DNA of 64,000 nt from Planktothricoides raciborskii GIHE-MW2 (GCF_040564635.1 NZ_CP159837.1:419801-483800); one strand, 5' to 3'. Positions 18,408-46,267 are shown, numbered from the stretch's first letter. Numbers and translations are program-made. The notes: a model not told the origin generated them from the letters alone.

Positions 18408-18602
18408 CTTTTTTCAGTAGGTTGGGTTGAATGAAATGAAACCCAACATCATTAATTTTTGAGGATTGATTTATGATTCATTTTTGGTGGGTGTTGGGTT
18501 GTGAGATATGCCCGAATTGTAGGTTGGGTTGAATGAAATGAAACCCAACATCATTAATTTTTGGTGGGTGTTGGGTTGCGCTACGCTTAACCCAACCTAC
18601 TA
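18408..18602. repeat. Two tandem MITE-like palindromic elements (GTAGGTTGGGTTGAA...TTAACCCAACCTAC) abutting the 3' end of gene 18600..20003
   Basis: Internal inverted repeats 'aggttgggtt...aaacccaac...gtgttgggtt...aacccaacct'. The same element pair occurs again at 20030-20226. Confidence 0.8.
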
Positions 18603-20003
18603 TGTCTTTTTTCCCTTTCCCCTTTGCTGTAGCCAAGTTTGCATAATTTTTTCTACCTGATCCTCAAAACCATAACGTGAGGGAATATCCTGTATAATTT
18701 TTGCCCATTCTAAGCGTAAATCTACCATAATCGCGGGTTCAATTTGCTCTAAAGCGTCAAATAACTGATTACAGTAGTCAATCACCGCTTTAGTTAAATT
18801 AAAACGCTCCTCATCAGGAAGATTTGCATCCTCAAATAAATCTGATAATAGAGTAGGTAAGAGGGGTAATTGACGATTTGCTGCATAAATCAGGAAATAT
18901 TCATCTGTCACCATCCCCACATGAATACAGTGTAAGATTTCCATGTAATGAGTAAAGGTTTCTCGAATACGGCGACTAAATTCGGCGCGATCGTAATCAG
19001 TTTGAATTTGTCGCCCTTCTCTTTCCCATTTTTTGAGTAAATTTTGAGAAATTTCCCCGATAGCATCTTGCCAACGGAATTTACGCACAACGGTTTCAAA
19101 CCTTGCGTCATCAAAGTCATTATTCCAAAAACCGATATTAATGTTGAAAAATGATTCTTCTACTTCCGTTTCTAAGACTAATACGGGAATTGTATTTAAT
19201 TCGCTGAAAATTTGATTAACTGCTGACTCTGCACGGCGGTTTTTAGTCACCCATTCCCCCGCCATAAATTTAATGGGGCGCTGTTTGAGGGTATATTGTT
19301 TAAACATTTCCCGTAATGCTCCAGAAAGGGTGGATTCCATCATGGGAAATTGACTTTGAGCAGCAGCATTAGGTACGGGATCATAACGTAATACAGGGGG
19401 AGAAAAGAAGACATTTAAGGGCATTTCTGAGCGATTTTCCACAGTTTTAAGGATATCATCAGCTACAGAAAAAACGGGATTATTGCGATCGCGTCTGTTA
19501 TCATCTCGGTTTTGTTTGTCTCTTTGACGGTTAATTTGAGCATTAAGTAAAGTAATTTCTGTGGAAAATTCGCGATCGGTTTCGGTTTTCCAACGTTGAA
19601 AGGCGATACTATCAGCTTGAAGGGCGATTTGCACTTCTGCTTTAAATTTTTCGATGGCTTGGGTAAATTCTCTTTGTTTTTCTGCTTCTAAGGATTGAAA
19701 GGCTTGACGCATTTTTTCTTGTTTAAACAGGGTTTCTGCTTCCATCACTTTCAACGCGAGGCTAAATTCCTTATCTTCTTGACGCTCTTTCGCTCTCACG
19801 GTTTGACGCATTATTTCCATTTTCGCATCAAATTCCATGCGTTTCATGCCAAGATCGCAGTTCGCATTATCTCGTTTTTGGGCCAATTCTAGGGATTTAG
19901 CCTGAGTCGTGATGGCACGAGTTTGATTAATTGCCATTAATGCAGGCGCGATCGCTCCTGCTACCTTAGCTATGCCACCGATCATAGAGCCAAAAATATT
20001 CAT
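18600..20003 (-). CDS. Hypothetical protein, 467 aa. It has an N-terminal glycine-rich hydrophobic segment, a long coiled-coil, and a C-terminal domain of unknown function.
   Basis: 'MNIFGSMIGGIAKVAGAIAPALMAI' is followed by a heptad-like charged region. I recognise no family. The gene is tightly bracketed by MITE pairs. Confidence 0.55.
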   Translation of the reverse strand: MNIFGSMIGGIAKVAGAIAPALMAINQTRAITTQAKSLELAQKRDNANCDLGMKRMEFDAKMEIMRQTVRAKERQEDKEFSLALKVMEAETLFKQEKMRQAFQSLEAEKQREFTQAIEKFKAEVQIALQADSIAFQRWKTETDREFSTEITLLNAQINRQRDKQNRDDNRRDRNNPVFSVADDILKTVENRSEMPLNVFFSPPVLRYDPVPNAAAQSQFPMMESTLSGALREMFKQYTLKQRPIKFMAGEWVTKNRRAESAVNQIFSELNTIPVLVLETEVEESFFNINIGFWNNDFDDARFETVVRKFRWQDAIGEISQNLLKKWEREGRQIQTDYDRAEFSRRIRETFTHYMEILHCIHVGMVTDEYFLIYAANRQLPLLPTLLSDLFEDANLPDEERFNLTKAVIDYCNQLFDALEQIEPAIMVDLRLEWAKIIQDIPSRYGFEDQVEKIMQTWLQQRGKGKKT

Positions 20004-20643: not shown

Positions 20644-21606
20644 ATGCCGTACACCGTTGATACAGCACGCAATATCTTTTCAAATACTCTGGCTGCCGAT
20701 GTTGTTCCCGCAACAACAGCCCGTTTCAACCAGCTTAGTGCAGAAGATCAACTGGCATTAATTTGGTTTGCTTACTTGGAAATGGGAAAAACCATCACAA
20801 TTGCCGCTCCTGGTGCGGCTAGTATGCAGTTTGCCGAATCCACTTTGGCACAAATCAAGGAAATGTCCTTCCGGGAACAATCCCAAGCCATGTGCGATTT
20901 GGCCAATCGGACCGACACTCCGATCAATCGGATGTATGCGATTTGGACACCGAATATCAAACTGGGCTTTTGGTATCGTCTAGCTGAATGGATGGACGAA
21001 GGACTCGTTGCTCCCATTCCTTCTGGCTATCAACTTTCTGCCAACGCTTCCGCAGTTTTAGCCACCATTTGCAGTATGGAACCGGGACAACAAATCACGG
21101 TTTTGAGAAATGCAGTGGTAGACATGGGTTATGACCCGAACAAAATTCAAGGATATCAGCGTGTATCTGAACCTGTCGTTGTCCCCACAGAGACTTCTGA
21201 GCGTCAAAAAGTGACCATCGAAGGAGTTGATAATCCAACGGTGATTCAATACATGACCAATCTTAATGCAAATGATTTTGATGCTCTGATTAAATTGTTT
21301 GCTGAAGATGGTGCGATTCAACCTCCTTTTCAACGTCCTATTGTGGGCAAAGAAGCTGTACTGCGTTTCTTCCGAGAAGAATGCCAAAATCTCAAACTCG
21401 TCCCTGAACGGGGTGTGGTTGAACCAGCAAATGATGAGTTCCTGCAAATTAAAGTTACTGGCACTTGTCAAACCCCTTGGTTTGGTGGCAATGTGGGCAT
21501 GAATATTGCTTGGCGCTTCCTGTTAAATCCTGATGGCAAGATATTCTTTGTGGCGGTTGATTTATTAGCATCGGCCAAGGAACTTTTAAACTTGGTTAGA
21601 AGATAG
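20644..21606 (+). CDS. ocp: Orange carotenoid protein (OCP), the photoprotective NPQ trigger
   Basis: Near-identity over long stretches to Synechocystis Slr1963: 'NTLAADVVPATTARFNQLSAEDQLALIWFAYLEMGKT', '...RPIVGKEAVLRFFREECQNLKLVPERG...TPWFGGNVGMNIAWRFLLNPDGKIFFVAVDLLAS'. Confidence 0.95.
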   Translation: MPYTVDTARNIFSNTLAADVVPATTARFNQLSAEDQLALIWFAYLEMGKTITIAAPGAASMQFAESTLAQIKEMSFREQSQAMCDLANRTDTPINRMYAIWTPNIKLGFWYRLAEWMDEGLVAPIPSGYQLSANASAVLATICSMEPGQQITVLRNAVVDMGYDPNKIQGYQRVSEPVVVPTETSERQKVTIEGVDNPTVIQYMTNLNANDFDALIKLFAEDGAIQPPFQRPIVGKEAVLRFFREECQNLKLVPERGVVEPANDEFLQIKVTGTCQTPWFGGNVGMNIAWRFLLNPDGKIFFVAVDLLASAKELLNLVRR

Positions 21607-21665
21607 AAATTTGTTGATAATTTGGACTGAAATATGTCCCAATTTTTCAACGGATTAAAATGAGA

Positions 21666-21690
21666 GCGTCCTCAGTGGGGGCGCTTTTTT
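21666..21690 (+). terminator. Rho-independent terminator downstream of ocp
   Basis: Stem GCGTCC/GGGGCGC (one G.U pair) followed by TTTTTT. Confidence 0.5.
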
Positions 21691-21817
21691 CGCATAGATA
21701 TAGCGGTTATTATTCAAATGAAGTACAGAGGTTTTCTGGATTCCCGCGCAGGCGGGAATGACAGTTTTTTTGTCCTTCATAACTCTGAGAAGTGCTATAT
21801 AGATATATAGTCTTAAA

Positions 21818-22576
21818 ATGGCAATTATGGGATTACAAAAACAAGGATCATATTTGGGTTTATGGTTGGCGATCGCGATTATTTTATTATGGGTTGGCAG
21901 TGGGATTTTTCTCATGGCTTTGCCTCTGGAAAAAATGAATTGGCTGGCGATCGCTTTTGGTATCGGGGGAAGGTCTTTTCTTCATACGGGATTATTTATC
22001 CTTGCCCATGATGCGATGCATGGCAATCTCGTGCCGAACCATCGGCATTTAAATCGGAGAATCGGCCAACTCGCGGTGAGTCTCTATGCTTTATTATCCT
22101 ATAAAAATTGTCAACAAAATCATAGAATTCACCATTTAAAACCGGGACAGATTGGCGATCCAGACTTTCACGATGGAGTCCATCCTCAGCCGATTTTCTG
22201 GTATGCTAAATTTCTGGGCGGTTACTTCTCTCTTGGCCAATTTCTCAAATTTATCGGGGCGATCGGGCTATTTTCCTTCTCGGTGCATAGTTGGTTTCAT
22301 ATTACTTACTTAAATTTATTCCTCGTCTTCCTGGTGCCGCTAATCTTAAGTTCGCTTCAGCTTTTCTTTTTTGGCACATATTTGCCTCATGGCTTGGGAA
22401 AGACTGGACAAAACCGGCATCGCCCGACTAATTTTTTATGGCATTGTTGGTCATTAATAACTTGTTATCACTTTGGAGCGTATCACCAAGAACACCACGC
22501 TTTTCCCCAAATTCCTTGGTTCCAACTGCCTCAAGCTGCCGCCATTCCCCCAATCCCGCAAAATTTAAAGAAGTAA
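21818..22576 (+). CDS. crtW: Beta-carotene ketolase CrtW
   Basis: Histidine boxes 'LAHDAMHG', 'HRIHH' and 'HQEHHAFP'. Strong overall similarity to Nostoc CrtW ('CYHFG.YH.EHH..PQ.PW'). Confidence 0.85.
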   Translation: MAIMGLQKQGSYLGLWLAIAIILLWVGSGIFLMALPLEKMNWLAIAFGIGGRSFLHTGLFILAHDAMHGNLVPNHRHLNRRIGQLAVSLYALLSYKNCQQNHRIHHLKPGQIGDPDFHDGVHPQPIFWYAKFLGGYFSLGQFLKFIGAIGLFSFSVHSWFHITYLNLFLVFLVPLILSSLQLFFFGTYLPHGLGKTGQNRHRPTNFLWHCWSLITCYHFGAYHQEHHAFPQIPWFQLPQAAAIPPIPQNLKK

Positions 22577-22752
22577 TAGCACAGCCGTGAAATCCATACA
22601 TAGCAAGGGTTTTGACATAAAATTCCTCTCTGTCCAGAAATTTTCTCAGCCAATCCCCTAGTTTATGCATCCAAATATTTATTATAATTTTTACTCATAT
22701 CAAGGAAAGTAATCTTCTTTGACTGCAATTTAAATTCAAAAAACTATTAATT

Positions 22753-23085
22753 TTGACGATGCCCCTTACTGAAACTCAATGGTCTCCCACAGAAGAAAAA
22801 ATTGTCAAGACTGCTTTTGATACTGCCTATCGTCGTGAAGTTGCTTCGATGATGGCAGAGGTCAAACGACAAGCGGAAGCAGCCACCAGTCCCGATGAAC
22901 TCTGGAAACTGCATGATTTTCTCAGTGCCAGAAGGCATTACCTGGATGGGAAATACGATTCTCGTGATTCGATGTTAATTTTTGTCTTTGCCCAATTAGT
23001 CAAAGAAGGCTGGTTAGAAATTGGAGAATTAGCGGGATTGAGTCCCGATAAAATCGCCAAGGTCAAAGCGCTGACACTCGTTTAA
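22753..23085 (+). CDS. frp: Fluorescence recovery protein (FRP)
   Basis: 'ELWKLHDFLSARRHYLDGKYDSRDSMLIFVFAQLVKEGWL' matches Synechocystis Slr1964 ('LWKLHDFLSAKRHEIDGKYDDRQSVIIFVFAQLLKEG'). Confidence 0.85.
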   Translation: MTMPLTETQWSPTEEKIVKTAFDTAYRREVASMMAEVKRQAEAATSPDELWKLHDFLSARRHYLDGKYDSRDSMLIFVFAQLVKEGWLEIGELAGLSPDKIAKVKALTLV

Positions 23086-23360: not shown

Positions 23361-23506
23361 AGAGGGGAAAATACGGTGCGATAGCTATTTATTTAATCAT
23401 CAGACGTAAGTCATACCAATCGATAAAACTGCGATAATAAAATGGTATTTTTGTCTAAAAACAATCTACAAATACACTTAAAGTTAGAATTTAATTTCAC
23501 ACTTAT

Positions 23507-23920
23507 TTAATTCACTCCTGCTGTAAGATCATCAAACATTGGGGTCATAATTTTCACAACGGGATTATCTATAAGCTCAATTATCTCGGCTGTAGTCCCG
23601 GCTTGCAAAGCTTTGATAATTCTCATTTTTATCTCAGGCTTTTGCTCCATTTCTTCCATAGCTTTCGCTGCCACAGTTGCTTTATCAGCAATCGTTATTG
23701 TTGGGTAGTTTTGAGATAGTTGATCTAAAATTTTCTGAATTTCTGCGGCTGCTTCAGTCAGTCTTTGTTTCTGAGCGTTGACGACACAACCAGCCGTTAA
23801 AATATTGTTTGCTATTTGTCCAGTATTCAGAGAACCATAAACACTACCGCTGACATTGCAACGCAATTCATTACTATCTCTAGGCATATTGAAACGCAAT
23901 TCATTACTATCTCTAGGCAT
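23507..23920 (-). CDS. Hypothetical protein, 137 aa, with an 11-residue N-terminal tandem duplication (MPRDSNELRFN / MPRDSNELRCN)
   Basis: The ORF sits in an AT-rich island. The duplication comes from a 33-bp direct repeat at about 23880-23930. No family recognised. Confidence 0.45.
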   Translation of the reverse strand: MPRDSNELRFNMPRDSNELRCNVSGSVYGSLNTGQIANNILTAGCVVNAQKQRLTEAAAEIQKILDQLSQNYPTITIADKATVAAKAMEEMEQKPEIKMRIIKALQAGTTAEIIELIDNPVVKIMTPMFDDLTAGVN

Positions 23921-23960
23921 AATAAAATTATCTCCTTATCTATCACAGTCAAACTTACTT

Positions 23961-24740
23961 TTAAGAGTAAAGCATATCAATTGTGTTTCTAGAAACAAGC
24001 TGATTTGGTTTTTCTTTTTCGTCTAATGATACCCAAATTGATCCCTGAAGTTTAGTTGCCACATTTTCTTCAAATTTTTTATTGTTTTGATCGTTAACGA
24101 TAAAGGTGGTAACATATTTTATATCCGGTTTTTGCTTATACTGTGTCCATCCATAAAGCCTCAAATCGTATCTGCCAGCTTTTAAATCAAATTTTCTACC
24201 TCCTAATTCATTAATCCAATCAAACCTGACTACTTTATTTACTGAAGATCCTCCTTCTACCGAAATTGCTTGAGCTATATTTTCATCTTCAAAATTATTA
24301 TTTTCCAACTTCACAAAAGTATTCCATGTCATGTCATAACAATCATCACAATTCGGGATTCCAATAACCAAACGAATCCGATTTATGGTTCCGCCTTCGC
24401 TGCTCCTATTGCAGAAAGTGATAGGTAAATTAAATCCGATTCCTTCAATTTGAACTCCAGAACCATTTTTCAATGGAATACATATAGGAAACAATATAAT
24501 ATTTGTTCCTATATAAAGCTGTATTTTAGCTTTTTGAAAATGAGAGACATAAGCAACAGACATAGACACAATTAAGCTACTAATAGCAATGATTGTGCTA
24601 ATAGGATCTGCTGACATCCCATTTGAATTAACGTTATTGTCTTTGACGCTATTTTGTGCAATTTGGGGTGCAGAATATGACAAAAATTGTTGACTTATTA
24701 TATCTCTATTTTCATATTTGTCATACGCATCTAACTGCAT
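23961..24740 (-). CDS. Hypothetical single-pass membrane protein, 259 aa
   Basis: TM helix 'ISTIIAISSLIVSMSVAYV'. Very AT-rich coding sequence, much lower GC than the flanking genes, which suggests horizontal acquisition. No family recognised. Confidence 0.5.
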   Translation of the reverse strand: MQLDAYDKYENRDIISQQFLSYSAPQIAQNSVKDNNVNSNGMSADPISTIIAISSLIVSMSVAYVSHFQKAKIQLYIGTNIILFPICIPLKNGSGVQIEGIGFNLPITFCNRSSEGGTINRIRLVIGIPNCDDCYDMTWNTFVKLENNNFEDENIAQAISVEGGSSVNKVVRFDWINELGGRKFDLKAGRYDLRLYGWTQYKQKPDIKYVTTFIVNDQNNKKFEENVATKLQGSIWVSLDEKEKPNQLVSRNTIDMLYS

Positions 24741-25103
24741 ATTGGTTAATTTTTTACACGAATAAACAACTAATTTTAACCAAACGGAGAGCTAATTATA
24801 TGCTACTCTAGCTATGTTACTGACTACGCAATCAAAAAAAATACCTAGACAGTATCGGCTGTATAAGACAACATCAAAGACTCTCAACCGCTCAACATTA
24901 AAGCATAAAAAACATAACAATATTTTTAATTTGTTATATTTACTACCTCCAGTATGAACGATTATTTTCAGCTTTGTCAACGTCAAAAAAGTTCAATTTT
25001 GATGAATTTTGTTATATTTTTTCTGAGACTTTGTGCAAAAATGTAGAAAAATGTGCAAAAATGTGATTAATGACACACAATACTCTCCCATCTTCTAACC
25101 CAT

Positions 25104-26495
25104 ATGAATCTTAAAGAAATGTTAAAAATTGCTGATGAAATAGTCTTCAAGAAAACCGGCGAACACCTCAACGACTTACAGGAAGGGGTACTGCGAGGAA
25201 CTCTACAGCGGGAGACATATAAGGAAATCGCTCAAAATTTTTACTGTTCGGAAAGTAATGTGAGAAAAGTGGCCATGGAATTATGGGAAATACTTTCAGC
25301 AGAGTTGAGTGAAAAAGTCAGTAAATCTAATTTACGCTCAGCAATGGAGAGGTGGCAAGTCTCGCTCGTTTCACACTATGCACAAGACTCTGTACGAAAC
25401 TGTGTGCAAATAAGTTGTGTTAATGTTTGTGGAGAAAGTAGACAGCCACCAGATATTCCAAATTCAAATCCACCGAATCAAGAAACAACTAACTCAAAAG
25501 AAAATAAAATATCCCATCAATATTTAAGTGAAATGCCGGATTTTGGTGCTTTTTACAGTCGAGATACCGAACTGGAAAACCTCAAAACCTGGATTTTACA
25601 ACAACGCTGTCGCCTCATCGCAGTCACCGGCATGAGTGGCATTGGCAAAACTGCATTAGCAGCGCAACTTGTACAACAAATTAAAGATGAATTTGAGTAT
25701 GTAATTTGGTGCAGTCTAGACGAATATTACACTCTAGATGCCTTTGAATATAAACTAATTCAGTTTTTCTCCCAGTCAGAAAAACTTGATGCACAGCCAA
25801 GTCAAACGAAGCCCTTAATTAAATATCTACAAAAGCATCGCTGCTTAGTGATATTAGATGACATTCAAAACCTTTTCATTAGAGGTGAATTGGCAGGAAA
25901 GTATAAACCAGGATACGAAGAATATCGGGGATTTTTCAAACAAATCGAAACATTTTCCCATCAAAGCTGCTTTTTGTTAATCGGTTGGGAACAACCGAGA
26001 GAATTGACTCAGGTTAAGCCCCAAAATAATCTGATTAACAGTTTACAACTGACGGGTTTAGATATCGAAGTTGGACGAGAAATCCTGAGAGAGTACGGGT
26101 TAGCTGAAGTTGAACAAGCCTCAGCACTGATGCAACGCTACGAAAGGAATCCATTATGGGTAAAAACTGTAGCGATTTTCATTCAAGATTTGGGAGTATT
26201 CGTCACTGATTTGTTAGTAAATGAGCCGCTGTTATTGCCGGAAGATTTGAAAGATATTTTAGGGCAGATTTATGATCGCTTATCCAACATCGAAAAACAA
26301 ATTCTTTCTTTATTGACGAAAGAAAACGAACCTGTTTCTTTAGCCAAATTACTAGAAAATAACATAATCGCCTCGGCAGATTTGCTAAATGGACTGCAAT
26401 CTTTATCACGACGCTGCTTGTTAGAACAACAGGATAATTGTTACTCCCTAACGTCTGTATTGAAACAGTATATCAAAGGTTTATCACTAACATAG
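25104..26495 (+). CDS. NB-ARC/STAND-family P-loop NTPase with a cyanobacterial N-terminal HTH-like domain and no C-terminal repeat (sensor) domain
   Basis: N-terminal 'LNDLQEGVLRGTLQRETYKEIAQNFYCSESNVRKVAMELWEILS' is the N-domain typical of cyanobacterial NB-ARC/WD40 proteins. Walker A 'VTGMSGIGKTALA', Walker B 'CLVILDDIQN'. At 463 aa it is much shorter than full-length family members. Confidence 0.7.
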   Translation: MNLKEMLKIADEIVFKKTGEHLNDLQEGVLRGTLQRETYKEIAQNFYCSESNVRKVAMELWEILSAELSEKVSKSNLRSAMERWQVSLVSHYAQDSVRNCVQISCVNVCGESRQPPDIPNSNPPNQETTNSKENKISHQYLSEMPDFGAFYSRDTELENLKTWILQQRCRLIAVTGMSGIGKTALAAQLVQQIKDEFEYVIWCSLDEYYTLDAFEYKLIQFFSQSEKLDAQPSQTKPLIKYLQKHRCLVILDDIQNLFIRGELAGKYKPGYEEYRGFFKQIETFSHQSCFLLIGWEQPRELTQVKPQNNLINSLQLTGLDIEVGREILREYGLAEVEQASALMQRYERNPLWVKTVAIFIQDLGVFVTDLLVNEPLLLPEDLKDILGQIYDRLSNIEKQILSLLTKENEPVSLAKLLENNIIASADLLNGLQSLSRRCLLEQQDNCYSLTSVLKQYIKGLSLT

Positions 26496-26601
26496 CGACT
26501 CCTTTTCAACTCATACGAACTATATCAATTGATGTCAATATCCGATTAACATTACCTTGTGAGTCCGAAACGGAAGAATAAAGTCAAGCCTAAAGTTATC
26601 A

Positions 26602-27027
26602 CTACGAACCTAGGTCAAAATATTGTTGAATAAAATCTTGGGCTGCCATGATTTTAATGCCCTGATATTCTGCTAAAACGCGTAAATCCATATCGCCTGT
26701 AATAATCGCATCCGCTTGAGAGGCGATCGCAGTTGCCAAGACCATAGTATCATCTGGATCTCTGAGTTCAGGCACATTTAATTCATCAATTGGATATAAA
26801 ATAACAGATGAGCGAATCAGAGCAATTACAGTAGATCCCGTTAAACCTAAAGCTTTTAGCTTGGGTTGCAGTTTGGTTTTATTGAATGTGCCTTCTAATT
26901 CATCCAATAATTCTTGAGACATGGCAATTGTGATTCTTCCTTGTTCTGCCAATTGGACAATTTCATCAGGAACTCCGCCCCAAATCACCGCAGATACCCA
27001 AATATTTGTATCTAAAACTACTTTCAT
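26602..27027 (-). CDS. PIN-domain toxin (VapC-like)
   Basis: 'MKVVLDTNIWVSAV' carries the PIN acidic residues and '...ITGDMDL'. The start overlaps the upstream antitoxin gene by 4 bp. Confidence 0.75.
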   Translation of the reverse strand: MKVVLDTNIWVSAVIWGGVPDEIVQLAEQGRITIAMSQELLDELEGTFNKTKLQPKLKALGLTGSTVIALIRSSVILYPIDELNVPELRDPDDTMVLATAIASQADAIITGDMDLRVLAEYQGIKIMAAQDFIQQYFDLGS

Positions 27028-27284
27028 TTCTTTGCTCTTTCGTGACGAACTTCCTTGACGATCGCACAAATTTCTTCAGTAGTAAGCTGATCCGGATCGT
27101 CTCCTAACTGCTCTCGGCGTTTTCTTAAGTCATCCCAATCAAATGTGGGGACTTTTGTAAAAACAATAGTGTCTCCATTGGTAATCACTGAGTATTTTTC
27201 CCCCTGCGAGAATTTATCTCTAATTTCCGGTGGGAGTTCTAAATTTCCTTCTGGGGTTAAAGCGATCGTAATTGTGGCTTCCAT
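27024..27284 (-). CDS. AbrB/MazE-type (SpoVT/AbrB fold) antitoxin
   Basis: 'MEATITIALTPEGNLELPPEIRDKF...' is the typical looped-hinge-helix antitoxin N-terminus. The ORF-track start further upstream is unlikely. Confidence 0.65.
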   Translation of the reverse strand: MEATITIALTPEGNLELPPEIRDKFSQGEKYSVITNGDTIVFTKVPTFDWDDLRKRREQLGDDPDQLTTEEICAIVKEVRHERAKK

Positions 27285-27562
27285 ATTTGTTTCATTATTC
27301 CTGACGATGATGATTATACCACAATTATACCACAAAATTTTTCTATTTCAGTTTCATCATGGCTGCATCATGGCTGCATCATGGCTGTAGGGGCGAAGCA
27401 TTTCGGCAGAAAATCCCCGCTTACCACCCATAACTTACCTGCCGAAATGCTTCGCCATGACGATATTTTTGGTAAACAAAATCGCCAATTTCATTCCAAC
27501 GGCCCGCGCATTGTGCTATTATAATTATTATCAAAATTATCCAACTAATTCAGTGAATTTAT

Positions 27563-28039
27563 ATGACCACGATCGCCCCCGTAACCACCGCAGCCAAACT
27601 CGCTGATTACTTCATCTGGTTTGCCAATGATGTAGGTTCTTACCTCAGCAATCAAAAACTGCAAAAACTCTTATACTATGCCCAAGCCTGGTATTTAGCC
27701 TTTGAAGATACACCTCTATTTGAGGAAGACTTTGAAGCCTGGATGCATGGGCCGACTATCCCCGCTTTATTTTATGAATACAAAGAACAATTCGGGTTTA
27801 AACCCATTCTGAAAGAAGTCGAAAAACCCGAATTCTCAGAAGATGTCCAAAAGTTTTTAGACGAGTTAGCTGACGATTATTTTTTTCTGGACGCTTATGA
27901 GTTAGAGTTGATGGTGCGCCGCGAAGACCCTTGGATTAATGCCAGAGGTGACTTGCCAAAAGATGAACCTTCTCATGCTATTATTACTAAGGAGTTAATG
28001 AGAAACTTTTACAAAACCCGTGTCATCGAAGAAGAATAA
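27563..28039 (+). CDS. Panacea-domain (DUF4065 / SocA-like) protein, a putative PanA antitoxin
   Basis: 'QKLQKLLYYAQAWYLAFEDTPLFEEDFEAWMHGPTIPALFYEY' matches the DUF4065 consensus. Confidence 0.75.
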   Translation: MTTIAPVTTAAKLADYFIWFANDVGSYLSNQKLQKLLYYAQAWYLAFEDTPLFEEDFEAWMHGPTIPALFYEYKEQFGFKPILKEVEKPEFSEDVQKFLDELADDYFFLDAYELELMVRREDPWINARGDLPKDEPSHAIITKELMRNFYKTRVIEEE

Positions 28040-28463
28040 AAAAAGACAAGACACTGATATCCGCATTCAGCCATCTTCAGCCGGAAGAAATGTAGGGGAG
28101 ATAAAAATACCGGAAGGAATTAGTTTTTCTTTCCGGTATTATCAGGATGATAAAGAAAAATTTTCCATAGGTAAGAGGGACGCCAGATATCTAGCTTCTC
28201 TCTTGCGGAGACTGCGCGATTTATCTCAATTAAATGCGAAAGAACTGATTAACAATCAGAGTAAAAGTCTCCGCTGTCATAAAATAGACTGGCAAGATAC
28301 AACTGAACCCAATGGTTTTGGGATTGCTAATGAAGAGCAGCTAGTCAATACCCCCTACCAGTTTCAAATCTCTGCCAATGAATATGGCAGAGTGCATGGA
28401 TTTTTTAGTGAAAATGTTTTTTACGCTATCTGGTTAGACCCAGACCATCATCTTTATCAGTAA
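28020..28463 (+). CDS. Hypothetical protein that overlaps the 3' end of the Panacea gene by 20 bp. Candidate cognate toxin.
   Basis: 147-aa ORF. No family recognised. Its last about 57 codons are duplicated at 29038-29212. Confidence 0.4.
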   Translation: MSSKKNKKRQDTDIRIQPSSAGRNVGEIKIPEGISFSFRYYQDDKEKFSIGKRDARYLASLLRRLRDLSQLNAKELINNQSKSLRCHKIDWQDTTEPNGFGIANEEQLVNTPYQFQISANEYGRVHGFFSENVFYAIWLDPDHHLYQ

Positions 28464-28500
28464 ACATGAGAAAGCGATCGCCTTATTTATCGCTACGATT
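28290..28500. repeat. Copy 1 of a roughly 200-bp direct repeat. Copy 2 is at 29030-29240. The repeat includes the 3' end of gene 28020..28463.
   Basis: 'ctggcaagatacaactgaacccaatggttttgggattgctaatgaagagcagctagtcaataccccctaccagtttcaaatctctgccaatgaatatggcagagtgcatggattttttag[t/c]gaaaatgttttttacgctatctggttagacccagaccat...' appears at both locations. Confidence 0.85.
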
Positions 28501-28609
28501 GATTAATTGTGTTAAAAATTAGTTAATTTTTTCCCTAGGAATATCCGGGTAACGAGGGAAAAATGGAGACATTTGTGGCCGGAAAACGTTGATAGGGAGG
28601 TTAAGTAAT

Positions 28610-28918
28610 ATGGATTTGAAACCGATAAAAACTGAGGCAGATTATCGTCAAGCGTTGGCGGAAATTGAACGGCTTTTTGAGGCAGAATTGAATACCCCAG
28701 AGGGCAATCGCTTGGAAATTCTCGTCACCTTGGTTGAAGCTTACGAAAAAAAGCATCATCCAATTGAATCACCTTTACCTGATGAGGCAATTCTCTACCA
28801 CTTAGAAAGCCGTCATCCTTCTTTAACGGTCTCTAATTTTATTCAAGGATTGAAGCGTCGGGGAGTCAGCGATCGCGTGATTCAAGAGGCTTTGAATGAG
28901 GTGGGTATGGCAGGGTAG
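28610..28918 (+). CDS. HigA-family antitoxin-like protein (N-terminal domain clear, C-terminal HTH atypical)
   Basis: 'MDLKPIKTEADYRQALAEIERLFEAELNTPEGNRLEILVTLVEAYEKKHHPI' is the characteristic HigA/XRE antitoxin N-terminus. GGGAGG lies 9 nt upstream of this ATG. Confidence 0.5.
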   Translation: MDLKPIKTEADYRQALAEIERLFEAELNTPEGNRLEILVTLVEAYEKKHHPIESPLPDEAILYHLESRHPSLTVSNFIQGLKRRGVSDRVIQEALNEVGMAG

Positions 28919-28919
28919 C

Positions 28920-29035
28920 ACGGGAGTACGGGAGCACGGGAGTAGGGGAGCCGCCAATCGAGCCGCCAATCGAGCAGAGGAACCCCACACCCTACACCGA
29001 TGGCGGCCCTACCCCCTACACCCTACACCCTACAC
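28920..29035. repeat. STRR-like heptamer repeats plus a roughly 90-bp segment that is repeated at 30185-30285
   Basis: 'gagccgccaatcgagccgccaatcgagcagaggaaccccacaccctacaccgatggcggccctac' is present at both sites. Together they flank xisH/xisI. Confidence 0.8.
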
Positions 29036-29281
29036 TACTGGCAAGATACAACTGAACCCAATGGTTTTGGGATTGCTAATGAAGAGCAGCTAGTCAATAC
29101 CCCCTACCAGTTTCAAATCTCTGCCAATGAATATGGCAGAGTGCATGGATTTTTTAGCGAAAATGTTTTTTACGCTATCTGGTTAGACCCAGACCATAAT
29201 CTTTATCGGTAAACATGAGAAAGCGATCGCGTTATTTAAGGCTACTACTCACAACACCGGACAGAACAAAACAAAACAAAA

Positions 29282-29653
29282 TTAAACAACTGAATATTCC
29301 GTATATTGCCGGATTTCAGGAGGTTGAAACCCCAGGACAATATCTTGCTTAGGAACCCCTAGATCCACCAGTTTTTGGGCGATTCTCATTTCGGTCATAT
29401 TTTGCTGAACCCAAATTTTCCCCCCTTGAATATCCAAATGTAACACGCAACCATAAACTCTTCGATACCCATCCCAGCCCACATTCATTACCTGATAGTG
29501 GTCTTGTTTCGTGTCAAAAACCGTGTAGCAATCTATCGAGCCATTCGCGATCGGGATAGACGCATAATCCGCTAACACAGACTGAATAATCAGGCGATAA
29601 TATTCTATTTTATCCCCGATTTTATCTCCGATTTTATCCACTATTTTATCCAT
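29282..29653 (-). CDS. xisI: XisI (fdxN element excision controlling factor XisI family)
   Basis: 'YTVFDTKQDHYQVMNVGWDGYRRVYGCVLHLDIQGGKIWVQQNMTE..IAQKLVDLGVPKQDIVLGF'. The N-terminal 'DKIGDKIGDKI' comes from a 12-bp tandem repeat. Confidence 0.9.
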   Translation of the reverse strand: MDKIVDKIGDKIGDKIEYYRLIIQSVLADYASIPIANGSIDCYTVFDTKQDHYQVMNVGWDGYRRVYGCVLHLDIQGGKIWVQQNMTEMRIAQKLVDLGVPKQDIVLGFQPPEIRQYTEYSVV

Positions 29654-30057
29654 TGGATAATTACCTCCTCATTCGGATCGTAAATTATTTGTTTAATTTG
29701 ATATCTTTCCAGAGAAATTTGGGCAAATTCGCGCTTAAAAAAGGTTTGATACACCCCCACCGGCACTGCCAAATAAAGAATCCTTGTGGGATCGCTAATT
29801 TCTAAAGCAAGCCGATAATTCAAAAACTGTCCTAATGCAGCATGGTAATCGGTCAGGGGTGAATCACTTAAAAAGGTTTTTATCTCAACGGCTATTTTTT
29901 CTTGGCCTCGTTCTGCTGCTAACAGTTGCTCTGCACCTAAATCAATTTCAAATTTTGTGCCGCCTACTTCGAGTCTTAATGGATCGTCCGTGACATTCCA
30001 CTGCTCTTTTTCTAGAGCAATTCTAACCGCAGCATGAAATTTATCTTTAGCTCCCAT
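29641..30057 (-). CDS. xisH: XisH (fdxN element excision controlling factor XisH family)
   Basis: 'KDKFHAAVRIALEKEQWNVTDDPLRLEVGGTKFEIDLGAEQLLAAERGQEKIAVEIKTFL...LYLAVP' matches Anabaena XisH closely. The gene overlaps xisI by 13 bp. Confidence 0.9.
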   Translation of the reverse strand: MGAKDKFHAAVRIALEKEQWNVTDDPLRLEVGGTKFEIDLGAEQLLAAERGQEKIAVEIKTFLSDSPLTDYHAALGQFLNYRLALEISDPTRILYLAVPVGVYQTFFKREFAQISLERYQIKQIIYDPNEEVIIQWIK

Positions 30058-39966: not shown

Positions 39967-41145
39967 ATGAATCCTGACAAACCATATAGTTGGATAGAAA
40001 AATCTCTCTCAGCAATTCACCGGGCTAACTGGCATCGATCGCCCCAAACTATAGAAAGTTTGCCGGGGTCATTGGTACAAGTAGAAGGCAGAAAACTGAT
40101 GAATTTTGCCAGTAATGATTATCTCGGTTTAGCGGGGGACGATCGCCTAATTCAAGCCGCAATTAAAGCCACCCAAACTTATGGGACTGGGGCTACGGGG
40201 TCGCGTTTAATTACGGGAAATCGACCCCTACACCAGCAGTTAGAAGAAGCGATCGCCGACTGGAAACAAACCGATGCGGCGATCGTATTTTCTTCTGGTT
40301 ATTTGGCGAATATTGGCGCGATCGCTGCTTTAGTTGGGCAACGAGATTTAATCCTCGGCGATCGATATAATCACTCTTGTTTAAAAAATGGTGCCATTCT
40401 CAGCGGCGCCACATTCAAAGAATATTCCCATAACCAAATAGAAGAGTTAAAAACCCTCTTAGAACAACATCGTCATCAACATCGACGCTGCCTGATTCTT
40501 TCTGATACCGTCTTTAGCATGGATGGGGATATTTGTCAAGTACCAGAATTGTTAAATTTGGCCGCAGAATTTGACTGTATGGTGTTAGTGGATGAAGCCC
40601 ACGGTACGGGAGTTTTAGGCGAAACTGGGTCGGGGGCTGTAGAACACTTTGGCTGCACGGGCAAACCTTTAATTCAAATGGGGACTTTAAGTAAAGCTTT
40701 GGGCAGTTTGGGCGGTTATATTGCCGGAAGTGCCAGTTTAATCGACTTTTTGCGGAACCGCGCCCCCAGTTGGATTTATACTACCGGGTTATCCCCTGGG
40801 GATACGGCTGCCGCTTTGGAAGCGATCGCCATTATTCGCGCTGAACCGGAAAGACGGCAAAAACTTTGGCAAAATATCGCCTATTTGCAACAAGAATTTG
40901 CCACCAAACTGCCATCTTGCTGGAAAATCCTGCCCTCTCAGTCGCCAATTTTTGCCCTGCAAATGTCTGATGCGGCCGCAGTTTTAGCCGCCGGAAGCGA
41001 ACTAAAAGCGGCGGGAATTTGGGCGGCGGCGGTGCGTCCCCCCACGGTGCCGACTAGCCGAATTCGCATTACCGTTATGGCTACTCACGAGTTAGAACAT
41101 TGCCAATTTTTAGTCAATGTTTTATCCCAATTTGGCAACCCTTGA
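39967..41145 (+). CDS. bioF: 8-amino-7-oxononanoate synthase (biotin biosynthesis)
   Basis: '[16 protein letters not shown]', '[14 protein letters not shown]', '[15 protein letters not shown]', PLP-lysine '[16 protein letters not shown]'. Confidence 0.9.
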
Positions 41146-41252
41146 AACCGGGTTTTTTGTAACTCAGAGTAAGGGCGGGATTCAAACCATTGGTGTGAAT
41201 CCCGCCCTTACATATCCACGACACAAACCCGGTTTTTTTTCGGGGGAAAAAA

Positions 41253-41474
41253 CTATCCTTGATTTTTGGGGAGAGAGTCTTTACGAAATCGGGCGGTAAA
41301 TTCTGGATATTGTTCTAAATCCTCAACCGAATCCACTGGCGGCATCTCCACCCAGTTTCCTTCTTGATGTAACCTGTCTATATAAGCATAAAATGCCTCT
41401 TGACTGTCTCGATGAGCCAGCATATATTTCTGCAATTCTTTTTGGCTCATTGCTTGAAAATTCGGTTCGATCAT
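41253..41474 (-). CDS. Small conserved hypothetical protein
   Basis: 73-aa ORF. No family recognised. Confidence 0.35.
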   Translation of the reverse strand: MIEPNFQAMSQKELQKYMLAHRDSQEAFYAYIDRLHQEGNWVEMPPVDSVEDLEQYPEFTARFRKDSLPKNQG

Positions 41475-41616
41475 TCAATGTACCTCCAAGTACCTCCAAT
41501 TTCCCCTGGGAATCCCAAAAATTGTCCCTTGGGTGGGAATTTCTGGGCGATCGCAGATGATTTTGCTCCGAAGCCCATCTAATTCATTTAAAATTGACAA
41601 CGATCATTGCTTAAAT

Positions 41617-43062
41617 ATGAATGTGATGCTGCCTAACCTATCCTGTTTGCGATTCCGCCTTGGCGATCGCGAAAGCAAATCGCTCATTTCCACGATTGTA
41701 CTCTTAATGCTTCTGACCTCTTGTGCGAATAGTCCGGCAGGCGAATCACTACAACGTTCATTAGAAGCGGATCCGCAACTGAAAGAGAATCAGCCCGATC
41801 TCGTCCAACCAACCACTCCCACTCCGGCCCCAACCGTGGCATTACCCCAGGATTTCCCCTTTGAGATTCCTTTATATCCAGGGGCAAAACTGCTGGCAGT
41901 GGAAACCGAACAACTCCAAGCAGCTACGGAAACGCCGTCGGTTACCACACCGCCAAAAACCGGGCAGATCGTCTCTACCCGTTGGCAGACTGGTGATAGT
42001 CCCGAACAGGTGAGGACTTTTTGGCAATCGGAGTTGCAAAAAAATAATTGGCAGTTGGTTGGGGCATCCACCGATAGTCAACCGGATATTCAGGGAGATA
42101 AAATCATCGCTCGTCAAGAGAATCTAGAAGTCACTTTTTCCATAGTTCAAAAGCCCGATGCCGCAGCATCTAATCCCCAAAGTCCCACCCCTTTACCGAC
42201 ACAATATCTGATTTCTTACCATCGTCTTGACTCGGATGGGGTGGCAACTACCCCAGAAACCACCCCTGAGACGATCGCATCCACTGCACCACAAACCGCA
42301 GAAACTACAGAAACCGCGATTTCTACCGATCTTGACCAAGCCCCCGAACCGTTACGCTCATATATCCAAGACTTGAGTAAACTAGGGGTGTTGCAAATGC
42401 CCGTCAGTAAAGAAATCAATAGACAGAATGGTAAGGTCTTAGAACCGAATAAAGTTATTACTCGTCGTCAATACGCCCAATGGCTGATGTTGGCGAATAA
42501 TAAAATTTATGCCAACCAACCGAGTAAACAAATTCGTGTAGCGACTACTAATGCTCAACCAGCTTTTCAAGATGTGCCCATCAGTGACCCGGATTTTCCG
42601 GTGATTCAAGGGTTAGCGGAAGCGGGAATTATTCCCAGTTCTTTGGCTGGGGAAACCACCACGGTGACTTTTAGCCCCGACCAACCCCTGACTAGGCAAG
42701 ATTTGATCCTGTGGAAAGTTCCTCTGGATATTCGGCGATCGCTTCCCACCGCTTCCGTGGATACAGTTAAGGAAACGTGGGGTTTTCAAGACACCAGTAA
42801 AATTGATCCGAGGGCGCTGCGGGCAGTTTTGGCCGATCACCAAAATGGCGATTTGGCCAATATTCGCCGCGCTTTTGGTTATACCACCTTGTTTCAGCCC
42901 CAAAAGACGGTGACTCGCGCTGAAGCGGCAGCAGTGCTCTGGCATTTCGGCATTTCTGGAGAAGGGCGATCGGCTGCGGATGCCCTAGCCTTGTCCGCTA
43001 CTCAGTCCACTCAGCCTACTCAGTCTACTCAGCCTACTCAGCCTACTCAGTCCACCCCATAA
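41617..43062 (+). CDS. S-layer homology (SLH) domain-containing lipoprotein
   Basis: Lipoprotein signal 'LLMLLTSCANS', a Pro/Thr-rich linker, and three C-terminal SLH-like repeats ('ITRRQYAQWLMLAN', 'FQDVPISDPDFPVIQGLAEAGII', 'LTRQDLILW', 'VTRAEAAAVLWHFG'). C-terminal QSTQPTQ repeats. Confidence 0.7.
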   Translation: MNVMLPNLSCLRFRLGDRESKSLISTIVLLMLLTSCANSPAGESLQRSLEADPQLKENQPDLVQPTTPTPAPTVALPQDFPFEIPLYPGAKLLAVETEQLQAATETPSVTTPPKTGQIVSTRWQTGDSPEQVRTFWQSELQKNNWQLVGASTDSQPDIQGDKIIARQENLEVTFSIVQKPDAAASNPQSPTPLPTQYLISYHRLDSDGVATTPETTPETIASTAPQTAETTETAISTDLDQAPEPLRSYIQDLSKLGVLQMPVSKEINRQNGKVLEPNKVITRRQYAQWLMLANNKIYANQPSKQIRVATTNAQPAFQDVPISDPDFPVIQGLAEAGIIPSSLAGETTTVTFSPDQPLTRQDLILWKVPLDIRRSLPTASVDTVKETWGFQDTSKIDPRALRAVLADHQNGDLANIRRAFGYTTLFQPQKTVTRAEAAAVLWHFGISGEGRSAADALALSATQSTQPTQSTQPTQPTQSTP

Positions 43063-43474
43063 AGCTGCCAATTGTGCTGCTACGTTATATTATCGTCAAA
43101 AGTTATAATGTTCAAAAATTGCTGGAGGTTTCTGATTAAAATATTCTTTGAGATATGATGGAACTATTGCCTTTGTTTTAGAGAGAATGGTGCAACCAAT
43201 GATGACTTCACGCGATTTTGAGGAAAACTAAACTAGGAAGTTGACAATGGCTTTGTCCTTGGAAATGATTTTGCCTTAGTAGGATCATCCCGATTGTGTA
43301 AATCAGCCTGTAGGGGCGAAGCATTCGCGGATTTATCTCTAAACCTAAGCCGAAAAGTTTATGCGCGAATGCTTCGCCAGGAAACTAAACTCCCCGCAGA
43401 ATCAACCGATAAAGCCTGGACAATATATCCTAGTTTAGTAATTGATTACAAGTGTTGTTTCACAGAGAACATAT

Positions 43475-45079
43475 ATGCGAGTTTTACTGATTTATCCTCG
43501 ATTTCCGAAAAGTTTCTGGTCATTTGAAAAAAGTCTAGAGTTAGTTGGTCGTAAAGCCCTGCTACCTCCTCTGGGTTTGATTACGGTCGCCGCCATTCTT
43601 CCTGATGAATGGGAATATAAATTAGTCGATCGCAATATTCAGGAAACCACCGAAGCAGATTGGGATTGGGCGGAACTGGTGATTCTGTCTGGAATGATTG
43701 TCCAAAAAGAGGATTTATTGGCGCAAATTCGGGAAGCCAAACGCCGAGGCAAACCTGTGGCTGTGGGTGGGCCTTATGCCACGGCATTACCCCATGAACC
43801 GGAAGAAGCTGGGGTGGATTATTTAATTTTGGATGAAGGGGAAATTACCCTGCCCATGTTTGTGGCAGCCCTAGAACGCGGCGAAACTCGTGGGGTTTTT
43901 CGGGCGAATGGAGAAAAACCCGATGTCACCTCTACCCCAATTCCTCGGTTTGAATTGGTGGATAAAGATGCTTATGATTCAATGGCGATTCAGTTTTCTC
44001 GCGGTTGCCCATTCCAATGCGAATTCTGCGATATTATTGTGCTTTATGGGCGCAAACCCCGGACGAAAACTCCAGAGCAGTTGTTAGCTGAATTAGACCG
44101 CCTTTATGAGTTGGGCTTTGACCAAAGTATTTTCTTGGTAGATGACAATTTTATTGGCAATAAACGCAATGTTAAGTTATTGCTAAAAGAGTTAAAGAAA
44201 TGGCAAGAAGCACATAATTATCATTTCAAGTTTCATACAGAAGCTTCGGTGGATTTGGCTAACGATCCAGAGTTGATGGAAATGATGGTTGACTGCAATT
44301 TTATTGCGGTATTTTTGGGAATTGAAACTCCCGATGAAGCTAGTTTAACTCTAACTAAGAAGTTCCAAAATACTCGCGATTCTCTGAGCGATTCGGTGGA
44401 GAAGATTATTCGCGCTGGGTTGCGGGTGATGGCTGGGTTTATTATTGGTTTTGATGGGGAAAAACCAGGGGCAGGCGATCGCGTAGCCCGGTTTGTCCAG
44501 CAAACTTCCATCCCTATTGCCATGTTTAGTATGTTGCAAGCGCTGCCAGATACAGCCCTGTGGCATCGTCTGACGAAGGAAGGACGTATGCTCAACCAAC
44601 AAGCGGCTGGCAACCAGACAACTTTGATGAACTTTGTCCCTACTCGACCGATTGAAGATATTGCTCGCGAATATATTGACGCCTTTTGGAAAATTTACGA
44701 GCCAATGCAATTTTTAGACCGCACTTATCGTCATTTTCTAATGTTAGGCGCACCGAGAAATCGGGTGCAACGGCGGAAGTTAGTTAGCTGGACGACGATT
44801 CGCGCTTTATTGATTCTGTTTTGGCGTCAAGGAGTGGTGCGGGAAACTCGCAGTAAGTTTTGGATTTATCTGTATAACATTTTTAAGCAGAATCCTCGGG
44901 TTTGGGATCATTATTTGACGGTTTGCGCTCACTTTGAACATTTTTATGATTATCGTGACCTGGTGCGTCAGCAAATCGAAAGCCAGTTAGCCGAATATTT
45001 GGCAGCAAAAGCGGCTACGGATCGGGCAATGGCTGAAACCGAAGCAATGAAACCGGAAATTGAGTCCGCAGCGGCTTAA
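43475..45079 (+). CDS. B12-binding domain-containing radical SAM protein (with C-terminal DUF4070)
   Basis: B12-binding N-domain ('RVLLIYPRFPKSFWSF...LPPLGLITVAAIL') and the radical SAM CxxxCxxC motif 'RGCPFQCEFCDI'. The ORF-track start at the TTG at 43442 is less likely than the ATG at 43475. Confidence 0.85.
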   Translation: MRVLLIYPRFPKSFWSFEKSLELVGRKALLPPLGLITVAAILPDEWEYKLVDRNIQETTEADWDWAELVILSGMIVQKEDLLAQIREAKRRGKPVAVGGPYATALPHEPEEAGVDYLILDEGEITLPMFVAALERGETRGVFRANGEKPDVTSTPIPRFELVDKDAYDSMAIQFSRGCPFQCEFCDIIVLYGRKPRTKTPEQLLAELDRLYELGFDQSIFLVDDNFIGNKRNVKLLLKELKKWQEAHNYHFKFHTEASVDLANDPELMEMMVDCNFIAVFLGIETPDEASLTLTKKFQNTRDSLSDSVEKIIRAGLRVMAGFIIGFDGEKPGAGDRVARFVQQTSIPIAMFSMLQALPDTALWHRLTKEGRMLNQQAAGNQTTLMNFVPTRPIEDIAREYIDAFWKIYEPMQFLDRTYRHFLMLGAPRNRVQRRKLVSWTTIRALLILFWRQGVVRETRSKFWIYLYNIFKQNPRVWDHYLTVCAHFEHFYDYRDLVRQQIESQLAEYLAAKAATDRAMAETEAMKPEIESAAA

Positions 45080-45251
45080 TCCCATTTTCGATAAATTCGG
45101 CAACAGATCCCCCCAACCCCCATACGCTCAGGGGCAACCACGGGGGGATTGCCCCTACAAAAATTTTCGCATCACTCGCATGAATTGCTATAGCTATAGT
45201 AGGGTGGGCAATATTTTGCCCACCCTACAGTTGCGATTTTCCCCTGTGAAT

Positions 45252-46248: not shown

Positions 46249-46267
46249 TTCCCAAAGGAAAAGCACC

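Follow-up and report, generated by a model that had tools for sequence, protein, structure and literature searches.

A putative STAND-type regulator of transcription in Planktothricoides raciborskii and other filamentous cyanobacteria, with its bidirectional promoter and variable cargo genes

The DNA analysed here, referred to as the window, is a stretch of 64,000 nucleotides from the filamentous cyanobacterium Planktothricoides raciborskii GIHE-MW2 (NZ_CP159837.1:419801-483800). The locus in question is a trio of intact open reading frames (ORFs) lying within the lowest-GC 3.1 kb of the window: a gene coding for a 463-aa protein with an N-terminal helix-turn-helix (HTH) domain and an NB-ARC NTPase core of the STAND type and, divergent from it across 363 bp, a two-gene operon coding for a 259-aa membrane protein and a 137-aa protein (Table 1). 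All three proteins have 100% identical database entries, situated on a 7.2-Mb contig. The mean GC content of the 3.1-kb segment is 0.352, against a window mean of 0.426 (standard deviation 0.032 for 3.1-kb windows), and it is equally low in no other 3.1-kb window of the 64 kb; it falls lowest in the gene of the membrane protein, to 0.323, and in the intergenic region, to 0.298. The segment is bordered on the left by a photoprotection cluster (OCP, CrtW, FRP) and on the right by a PIN toxin-antitoxin pair. An earlier note on this DNA had described a low-GC island, an NB-ARC NTPase with an N-terminal HTH-like domain and no C-terminal WD40 or TPR sensor, its divergence from a two-gene operon, a single-pass topology of the 259-aa protein and a tandem duplication of the first 11 residues of the 137-aa protein, and in all these points the description holds.

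Table 1. Coordinates of the features of the trio, its promoters and the neighbouring genes in the window.
Feature	Position	Strand	Details
137-aa protein, second cargo gene	23507-23920	-	ORF call
33-bp tandem duplication including the start codon	23855-23921	-	Tandem Repeats Finder (TRF): 2.0 copies, 97% matches
259-aa membrane protein, first cargo gene	23961-24740	-	ORF call
Predicted cargo promoter	24951-24980	-	-35 TTGACA (24980-24975), 18-nt spacer, -10 CATACT (24956-24951)
Distal direct-repeat motif	24985-25015		AAAAAAGTTCAATTTTGATGAATTTTGTTAT (family consensus AAAAATGTTCAATTTTGCCGACAATTTT); alignment
Proximal operator-like array	25032-25071	+	four phased 10-bp units TGTGCAAAAA, TGTAGAAAAA, TGTGCAAAAA, TGTGATTAAT
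Regulator -10 region	25066-25081	+	aligned position reads AATGAC (25069-25074); possible alternative CACAAT (25076-25081)
Conserved 5'-leader motif	25083-25095	+	CTCTCCCATCTTC (family consensus CTCgCATCtcC); alignment
463-aa HTH_VMAP-M9 + NB-ARC (STAND) protein, putative transcription regulator	25104-26495	+	ORF call, Pfam
HTH of the 463-aa protein	25104-25373	+	approximately aa 1-90
Cys-containing linker of the 463-aa protein			aa 91-148
NBD-ARC1-WHD of the 463-aa protein			aa 149-463
Coiled-coil-rich 467-aa ORF	18600-20003	-	left of the OCP cluster
Photoprotection cluster	20644-23085		OCP-like, CrtW-like, FRP
Toxin-antitoxin-like genes	26602-30057		right of the regulator
ORFs with a common stretch	28020-28463, 29000-29212
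Large ORFs, possible cas genes	39967-47627		before the CRISPR array
tRNA	46176-46248		before the CRISPR array
CRISPR array	47987 to beyond 59010	+	Rfam CRISPR-DR5

The 463-aa protein belongs to the NB-ARC/AP-ATPase clade of STAND NTPases, as judged by both profile and motifs. It matches Pfam PF00931 (E 2.4e-14, 53.6 bits, cutoff 23.5), and among proteins of solved structure the plant ZAR1 NB-ARC is the nearest to it in sequence (E 7.7e-5). On direct reading Walker A (GMSGIGKT, G176-T183) and Walker B (LVILDD, L248-D253) are intact and the ARC1 GxP-type motif is present (RNPLWVK, 'NPLW', aa 347-353), while the columns of all three motifs are at least 90% conserved among 61 family members. The repeat sensor that is usual, if not defining, for the clade is absent: a TPR, WD40 or LRR sensor was sought and nothing was found in the 463-aa protein beyond the nucleotide-binding, ARC1 and winged-helix domains (NBD-ARC1-WHD), nor do C-terminal repeat domains occur in the best 120 of its 1,591 relatives. 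The N-terminus is assigned to PF26355, HTH_VMAP-M9, in the precomputed Pfam annotation; aa 11-57 additionally give a weak match to sigma70 region 4, and PF04545 (Sigma70_r4) is annotated on some family members. In a survey of cyanobacterial sigma factors, NB-ARC was found among the accessory domains of sigma70-like proteins (PMC11119718).

The 1,591 relatives returned by the database search come from Microcoleus, Aerosakkonema, Argonema, Tychonema and other genera, often with several per genome, and the best 120 are all 454-489 aa in length, 64-70% identical to the query over ca. 99% of it. The family has a pairwise ratio of nonsynonymous to synonymous divergence (dN/dS) of ca. 0.25 at a median dS of ca. 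0.64, its most variable segment being the Cys-containing linker (dN/dS 0.36). The 463-aa protein is thus a full-length member of a family of ca. 458 aa, and the intact motifs together with dN/dS of ca. 0.25 rule out what the earlier note had named as the fatal possibility, a truncated pseudogene remnant of a long NB-ARC-WD40 gene. It is worth mentioning that paralogues of the regulator from different genera (L008-L087 in our numbering of loci) display a low synonymous divergence despite only 60-70% protein identity. Moreover, in 59 of 59 loci the regulator coding sequence has a lower GC content than the flanks, and in 49 of these 59 so has the cargo region. The low synonymous divergence and the low GC content point to a recent spread, horizontal transfer or gene conversion in the family, as far as sequence comparison can tell; no conserved element, such as a mobile-element end, was found downstream of the regulator gene.

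Eighty genomic loci of NB-ARC relatives were examined. In 61 of the 64 non-redundant loci in which the nearest upstream ORF of at least 80 aa was considered, this ORF is divergent (p 5e-15), and the distance to its start is confined to a narrow range (median 239 nt, interquartile range 203-299). The genes so placed, for which the term cargo is used here, are not of one kind: 185 ORFs fall into 108 clusters, with unrelated families at different loci. They include unassigned secreted and membrane proteins, glycine-zipper-like proteins, an RDD protein, an MFS transporter, dynamin-like and other GTPases, a SLOG protein, a protein with a weak vWA match, radical-SAM enzymes, a Tse2-type ADP-ribosyltransferase, an HNH nuclease, and tRNA-synthetase paralogues of the TrpRS-like, HisRS-like, class II D/K/N-like and AlaX-like types (L063, L082, L068 and one further locus). 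The homology between loci breaks off at the divergent (cargo) promoter in one direction and at the regulator's stop codon in the other; therefore, the conserved unit consists of the regulator and both promoters.

The upstream regions of 67 non-redundant loci were aligned, anchored at the conserved start of the regulator (MNLKE...), and a block of ca. 190 nt was found to be common to the family members. On the cargo strand it contains a predicted sigma70-type promoter with a -35 of TAGACA or TTGACA, a spacer of 17-18 nt and a GATAAT-like -10, which scores at least 8 of 12 in 64 of the 67 loci, mostly clustered at an equivalent position. The corresponding promoter in the window scores 10 of 12 matches in a promoter scan and would give a cargo leader of ca. 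200 nt, reaching to the ATG at 24740; no structured RNA in this leader is among the Rfam matches listed for 23400-26500 at gathering thresholds. On the opposite strand the arrangement is different. The regulator's own promoter has no -35 hexamer, as read directly from the family consensus, and its -35 and spacer region is filled by the proximal array, which in the family consists of three to four tandem 10-bp units (e.g. TGTACGAAAA) directly abutting TAyAAT. On the strength of the consensus, a promoter so built has the geometry of activator-dependent promoters. The distal motif is located between the two promoters, directly upstream of the -35 of the divergent one.

The 10-bp periodicity of the repeats clearly exceeds the background. 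In the window the array is detected by TRF with a period of 10 and 3.4 copies (25032-25065). The self-similarity of the proximal region at a lag of 10 has a mean of 20.7 out of 30, compared with 9.7±2.5 in random windows of the loci, and an equally placed array is present in 56 of 79 loci at a lag-10 score of at least 20. With both strands counted, the 1.79 Mb of locus sequence contain 56 matches to a two-unit repeat pattern, of which 48 lie 30-260 nt upstream of a called HTH-NB-ARC start, and the other eight, on a reading of their positions, are at such promoters once upstream-extended ORF calls are corrected. In the 64-kb window the pattern occurs once, at this site only, where 0.03 would be expected by chance. 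Genes for standalone HTH proteins have a like layout, with GTTGGAAAAA three times by TATAGT and two distal copies, and the repeats therefore go with the HTH domain rather than with the NTPase.

Three classes of repeat were distinguished, and they co-vary with the residues of helix 2, turn and helix 3 of the HTH: TGTACrAAAA is found with the segment DFDCSESRVR, TGTTGGmAAA/TGCCAGAAAA with EIHCNESYVR, and TGTkGGGAAA with AVNRSEDRVR. The window protein (NFYCSESNVR) falls with the first of these, its repeats reading TGTGC/TGTAG. The repeat cores change in concert across all units of a locus, and in class B and in the standalone-HTH loci the distal repeats have the same core as the proximal ones.

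The partnership of the cargo genes with the HTH recurs in other genomes. The gene of the 259-aa family is followed by the small gene in nearly all loci that reach far enough (L001-L006, L092-L099, L101), and in most loci of this family the divergent gene codes for an HTH protein without NTPase: a standalone HTH_VMAP-M9 protein of 172-206 aa is situated opposite in L002, L003/L004, L006, L095, L098, L099 and L102, and shares 33% identity with the window protein over aa 1-120 of the latter (E 1e-22). In L007, L088 and L029 the small gene follows a DUF6232 membrane protein, and the divergent gene codes for a full HTH-NB-ARC protein of 459-470 aa. The DUF6232 and 259-aa families are unrelated, and the possibility that the latter is a divergent DUF6232 was ruled out by comparison of the two family alignments (hhalign probability 0.6%). 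The comparison of gene neighbourhoods thus finds the same cargo family re-paired with HTH genes across genera and metagenomes, with the HTH, not the NTPase, as the constant partner of the cargo. The earlier note would have given up its proposal had the two small genes never been co-localised with the NTPase in other genomes; both are found elsewhere beside HTH_VMAP-M9 genes. As a separate observation, the standalone HTH_VMAP-M9 proteins (172-206 aa; L002 7344-7862, minus strand, with relatives in L003, L095 and L102) carry a second, C-terminal HTH, which in L002 comprises aa 135-167 and gives weak matches to HTH_23 and Sigma70_r4.

In the interpretation favoured here, to which we assign a probability of roughly 0.6, the 463-aa protein is a STAND (NB-ARC) transcription regulator that travels with a portable bidirectional promoter, and the gene opposite is its exchangeable cargo. 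The output domain would be the N-terminal sigma70-region-4-like HTH (HTH_VMAP-M9), predicted to bind the phased 10-bp direct repeats in the intergenic region, where the four proximal units would stand in for a -35 at the regulator's promoter and the distal pair would lie by the opposite -35. Nucleotide-dependent switching of the NB-ARC, presumably ATP-dependent and probably involving oligomerisation, would set how many HTHs engage the array. Occupancy of the array would activate the regulator's own -35-less promoter, activation being favoured over repression by analogy with AfsR, and would, via the distal sites next to the opposite -35, also regulate the cargo operon. The regulator and the bidirectional promoter would make up a single conserved cassette, of which filamentous cyanobacteria have many paralogous copies, and the trio would probably not be a sensor-effector complex but a regulator together with its cargo. 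Of the traits expected of a STAND transcription regulator, an HTH-NTPase fusion and predicted operators at an adjacent promoter are seen here, while an inducer-binding sensor is not.

Several points weigh against this interpretation, the whole of which comes from comparative sequence analysis. The 463-aa protein has no recognisable sensor domain. The co-variation of repeats and HTH also tracks the phylogeny of the subfamilies, so that the loci are not independent. The pairwise identity of the upstream block (0.56-0.60) is no higher than that of four-fold degenerate sites (0.55-0.63), and the regulator family is young or homogenised, so that common descent could by itself account for much of the similarity. 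The window copy is itself not typical: its start codons are 364 nt apart against the family median of 239, which makes the cargo leader unusually long, and its own promoter may be weak or shifted to the alternative -10 given in Table 1. Finally, the two-gene operon is found with no HTH gene nearby in the Moorena loci (L001, L005) and in L092, and in L100 the membrane-protein gene is present while neither an HTH gene nor the small gene was detected. Purifying selection on the upstream block cannot be claimed from its average identity, which equals that of four-fold sites, and the argument stands instead on the structure of the repeats, the concerted change of their units, their fixed position with respect to the two promoters and their restriction to these promoters.

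The operons of Moorena and L092 also speak for a simpler alternative, in which the arrangement is incidental, the regulator controlling only itself or distant targets and the operon being transcribed from an independent promoter, for which the long leader in the window leaves room. The cargo is, moreover, too heterogeneous for an evident common function, as exemplified by the tRNA-synthetase paralogues and the MFS transporter. Nevertheless, an incidental neighbour would hardly be divergent in 61 of 64 loci at so tightly distributed a distance, the divergent -35 and -10 lie inside the conserved cassette and not in its variable part, and the same cargo family is re-paired with HTH genes time and again; we consider this alternative improbable.

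An anti-phage function was the proposal of the earlier note, which regarded the trio as a candidate defence locus with a STAND NTPase coupled to a membrane effector. The AlphaFold2 model of the 259-aa protein (alignment of 15 sequences, mean pLDDT 73) has a disordered tail (aa 1-43), a single transmembrane helix (aa 46-67) and, as the soluble part, an Ig-like beta-sandwich (aa 73-240, with a pLDDT of ca. 75-92 per 10-residue block). The protein has no Pfam match and only 15 relatives, all of them cyanobacterial where the organism is named. The 137-aa protein is composed of a disordered Gly-rich N-terminus and a five-helix domain (aa 43-134). Its 23 close relatives, mostly 117-127 aa in length, are devoid of the duplication at the start, by which the window copy gains 11 extra residues (MPRDSNELRFN) before the ancestral start; the second copy is taken as the ancestral one because the homologue in L092 begins MPEDSNTSRFNVSGSVYG.

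The 137-aa protein has no Pfam match at E≤0.1, and a profile built from its family found, with clustering at 50%, 1,540 representatives, among which 1,003 score below 1e-10. The module is C-terminal in most of the representatives listed, the host proteins being 120-1,847 aa long; 41 of 70 examples are pentapeptide-repeat proteins, and single ones carry TIR and TRADD-N, Roc-COR, CHAT, AbiTii, cpYpsA-SLOG, a DpnII-MboI nuclease, TPR, LRR or HTH_3. Judging by these profile matches, the 137-aa protein represents, as a gene of its own, a C-terminal module that is widespread in cyanobacteria, and its family resembles, in architectural pattern, the effector-associated adaptor domains (EADs) known from conflict systems in multicellular bacteria. 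Like EADs and Death-like adaptors (PMC7159879, PMC8195603), it is a small non-enzymatic, all-helical terminal module that occurs in diverse architectures and also alone; unlike EADs, it has no Pfam match and no second copy on the NTPase of the locus, so that the EAD pairing rule is not followed. In each locus the profile matches only the small gene, and the domain is absent from the NB-ARC protein. Independently of this, the C-terminus of the DUF6232 protein in L007 (5238-6378) and L088 (5356-6384), ending ..EDKSIKIEKSYGSSVISGHVTGNNVVN, resembles the N-terminus of the adjoining small protein (..EDKSIKVGSVVGGVINAGEVGRDIIV), which may point to a strand-like motif in common or to a past fusion or fission event.

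In the Avs/NLR-like version of the proposal, the NB-ARC protein would sense infection, oligomerise and activate a membrane killing effector by protein contact. STAND NTPases are indeed frequent as defence switches, and the low-GC island lies by toxin-antitoxin genes (PIN_3) and ca. 21 kb from a CRISPR array, with related loci situated among HicAB, PemK, ParDE, GmrSD and HEPN genes and the regulator adjoining a membrane-protein gene in the window as well as in the DUF6232 loci. However, the N-terminal domain is an HTH, neither an effector nor an adaptor, and the NTPase is devoid of a TPR, WD40 or LRR sensor. The membrane protein is modelled as a simple Ig-like sandwich carried by a single helix and shows nothing of a pore or an enzyme, and the absence of the small-protein domain from the NB-ARC protein leaves no shared adaptor for coupling. 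Most loci of the 259-aa family have an HTH protein and no NTPase at all, and what links regulator and partner across loci is the shared bidirectional promoter with its operator-like repeats. PADLOC gave only weak partial matches of the NTPase (the best to PDC-S27, E 1.7e-6, covering ca. 107 of 484 profile positions in the P-loop region only) and nothing significant for the partners (0.031 or no match at all). The trio itself is a real and conserved arrangement that has not been characterised before. The Avs/NLR-like mechanism proposed in the earlier note is not favoured, given the HTH output and the lack of a sensor; we regard that mechanism as quite improbable.

The last alternative, that the repeats are not sites of this HTH but intrinsically bending A-tracts, or NtcA boxes in many of the paralogues, has in its favour an A4-5 tract in each unit, phased at 10 bp, and the TGTAC-N5-TGTAC units of class-A loci (such as L021 and L009), which ca. 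45-70 nt upstream of the ATG form perfect GTA-N8-TAC boxes and, on direct reading, stand exactly 22 nt upstream of TAyAAT. A GTA-N8-TAC box placed 22 nt before the -10 is the arrangement typical of promoters activated by NtcA, and phased A-tracts could add some intrinsic bending. This alternative is nonetheless highly improbable, since the core outside the A-tract differs by class and changes in concert with the recognition region of the HTH, GTA-N8-TAC does not describe the repeats of classes B and C, of the standalone-HTH loci or of the window copy (TGTGC/TGTAG), and the pattern is confined to these promoters.

A defence role of the cargo is possible within the regulator-and-cargo interpretation. 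For a role in conflict speak the low-GC accessory character of the locus, the toxin-antitoxin and CRISPR neighbours, the adaptor-like module and some toxin-like cargo; against it, no defence model is matched by the trio and much of the cargo looks metabolic or is of no known function, PADLOC models matching only ca. 8-10 of 69 cargo representatives (LeoA/BC-like GTPases, radical-SAM/pVip-like proteins, HNH). It is no more than a tentative suggestion, and one we hold to be rather unlikely, that this large, recently expanded and sensor-less NB-ARC family provides an NLR-like response to stress or infection by gene induction, with the 137-aa protein as an adaptor. The near absence from viral contigs also speaks against a role in conflict, and an origin from phages was ruled out: on the viral contigs searched neither the membrane protein nor the NB-ARC protein has a relative, and the small domain gave one match, inside a 496-aa ORF.

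The nearest characterised counterpart is AfsR, a SARP-NOD-TPR regulator of Streptomyces with an N-terminal DNA-binding domain joined to a NOD. Its target promoter has a poor -35, two 11-bp direct repeats overlap the -35 and the spacer, and the NOD and TPR inhibit the protein, the inhibition being relieved by ATP binding (PMC10936776). In the window protein, as in AfsR, MalT and GutR, a DNA-binding domain is fused to a STAND/NB-ARC-type NTPase (N-terminally in AfsR also), and the regulator adjoins its presumed target gene; the predicted sites likewise resemble those of AfsR in being short direct repeats that are phased at ca. one helical turn and overlap the -35 and spacer of a promoter whose -35 is poor. 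The window protein differs from these three in its sigma70-region-4-like HTH (HTH_VMAP-M9) in place of an OmpR-type SARP or LuxR domain, in the lack of TPR or any other sensor, and in its length of only ca. 460 aa. The cyanobacterial family has, in addition, three to four proximal repeats with a distal pair, is highly paralogous, and in filamentous cyanobacteria combines a conserved bidirectional promoter with exchangeable cargo. Among STAND transcription regulators, the unusual feature would be a promoter cassette that is portable, has an apparent operator code and serves a cargo that differs from locus to locus.

With Avs and other bacterial NLR-like STAND proteins the locus shares the STAND NTPase core, the accessory low-GC region and the toxin-antitoxin and CRISPR neighbours. 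Unlike Avs, its NTPase carries no enzymatic or membrane effector domain and no C-terminal sensor repeat, has no significant PADLOC match, and has transcription as its predicted output. There is also a likeness to the vWA-MoxR-VMAP systems (PMC7159879), PF26355 being named after the VMAP middle region 9, and both are enriched in multicellular cyanobacteria and unite a constant core with variable partners. However, no vWA, MoxR or VMAP-C was identified in the trio or its identified neighbours, and the HTH domain is found here on an NB-ARC protein or as a standalone protein, linked to a promoter with repeats. No paper was found in the literature that gives the repeat sequences or the name HTH_VMAP-M9, or that describes the HTH_VMAP-M9-NB-ARC family as regulators.

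As regards the surroundings of the trio, the adjoining photoprotection cluster comprises a 320-aa OCP-like ORF, a 252-aa CrtW-like ketolase ORF and FRP (Pfam E 6e-38), the first two named by sequence reading only. To the left of it lies a coiled-coil-rich ORF that matches no Pfam or NCBIfam family and gives only a non-significant PADLOC match (E 0.009). To the right of the regulator there is a series of small toxin-antitoxin-like genes, including a PIN_3 toxin (E 1e-19) whose gene overlaps an upstream 103-aa ORF. Two ORFs in this series have in common a near-identical stretch of ca. 50 residues (DTTEPNGFGIANEEQLVNTPYQFQISANEYGRVHGFFSENVFYAIWLDPDH), which suggests a partial duplication. The CRISPR array is very large, with 37-nt repeats at a spacing of ca. 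73 nt, and nearly all of the 217 Rfam matches returned are its repeats; it is preceded by a tRNA and the large ORFs listed in Table 1.

If the interpretation is correct, the view of the locus shifts from an orphan defence trio to a regulator with its cargo. On the rather unlikely reading as a response to stress or infection, each cassette would induce the gene opposite whatever its product, from membrane proteins, adaptors and toxins to dynamin-like GTPases, radical-SAM enzymes and tRNA-synthetase paralogues. The 137-aa protein would then engage the pentapeptide, TIR and CHAT proteins that bear its module at their C-termini. If the regulator-and-cargo interpretation holds, the three repeat classes matched to three HTH variants would amount to a readable operator code, and the cassettes would offer an entry point to the inducers of dozens of unknown accessory gene families; they might also serve as orthogonal expression parts for cyanobacteria. 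More generally, multicellular cyanobacteria would possess a large uncharacterised family of minimal NLR-type transcription switches, which would bear on the question whether bacterial NLR-like proteins, usually assumed to be immune sensors, may act via transcription, as AfsR does.

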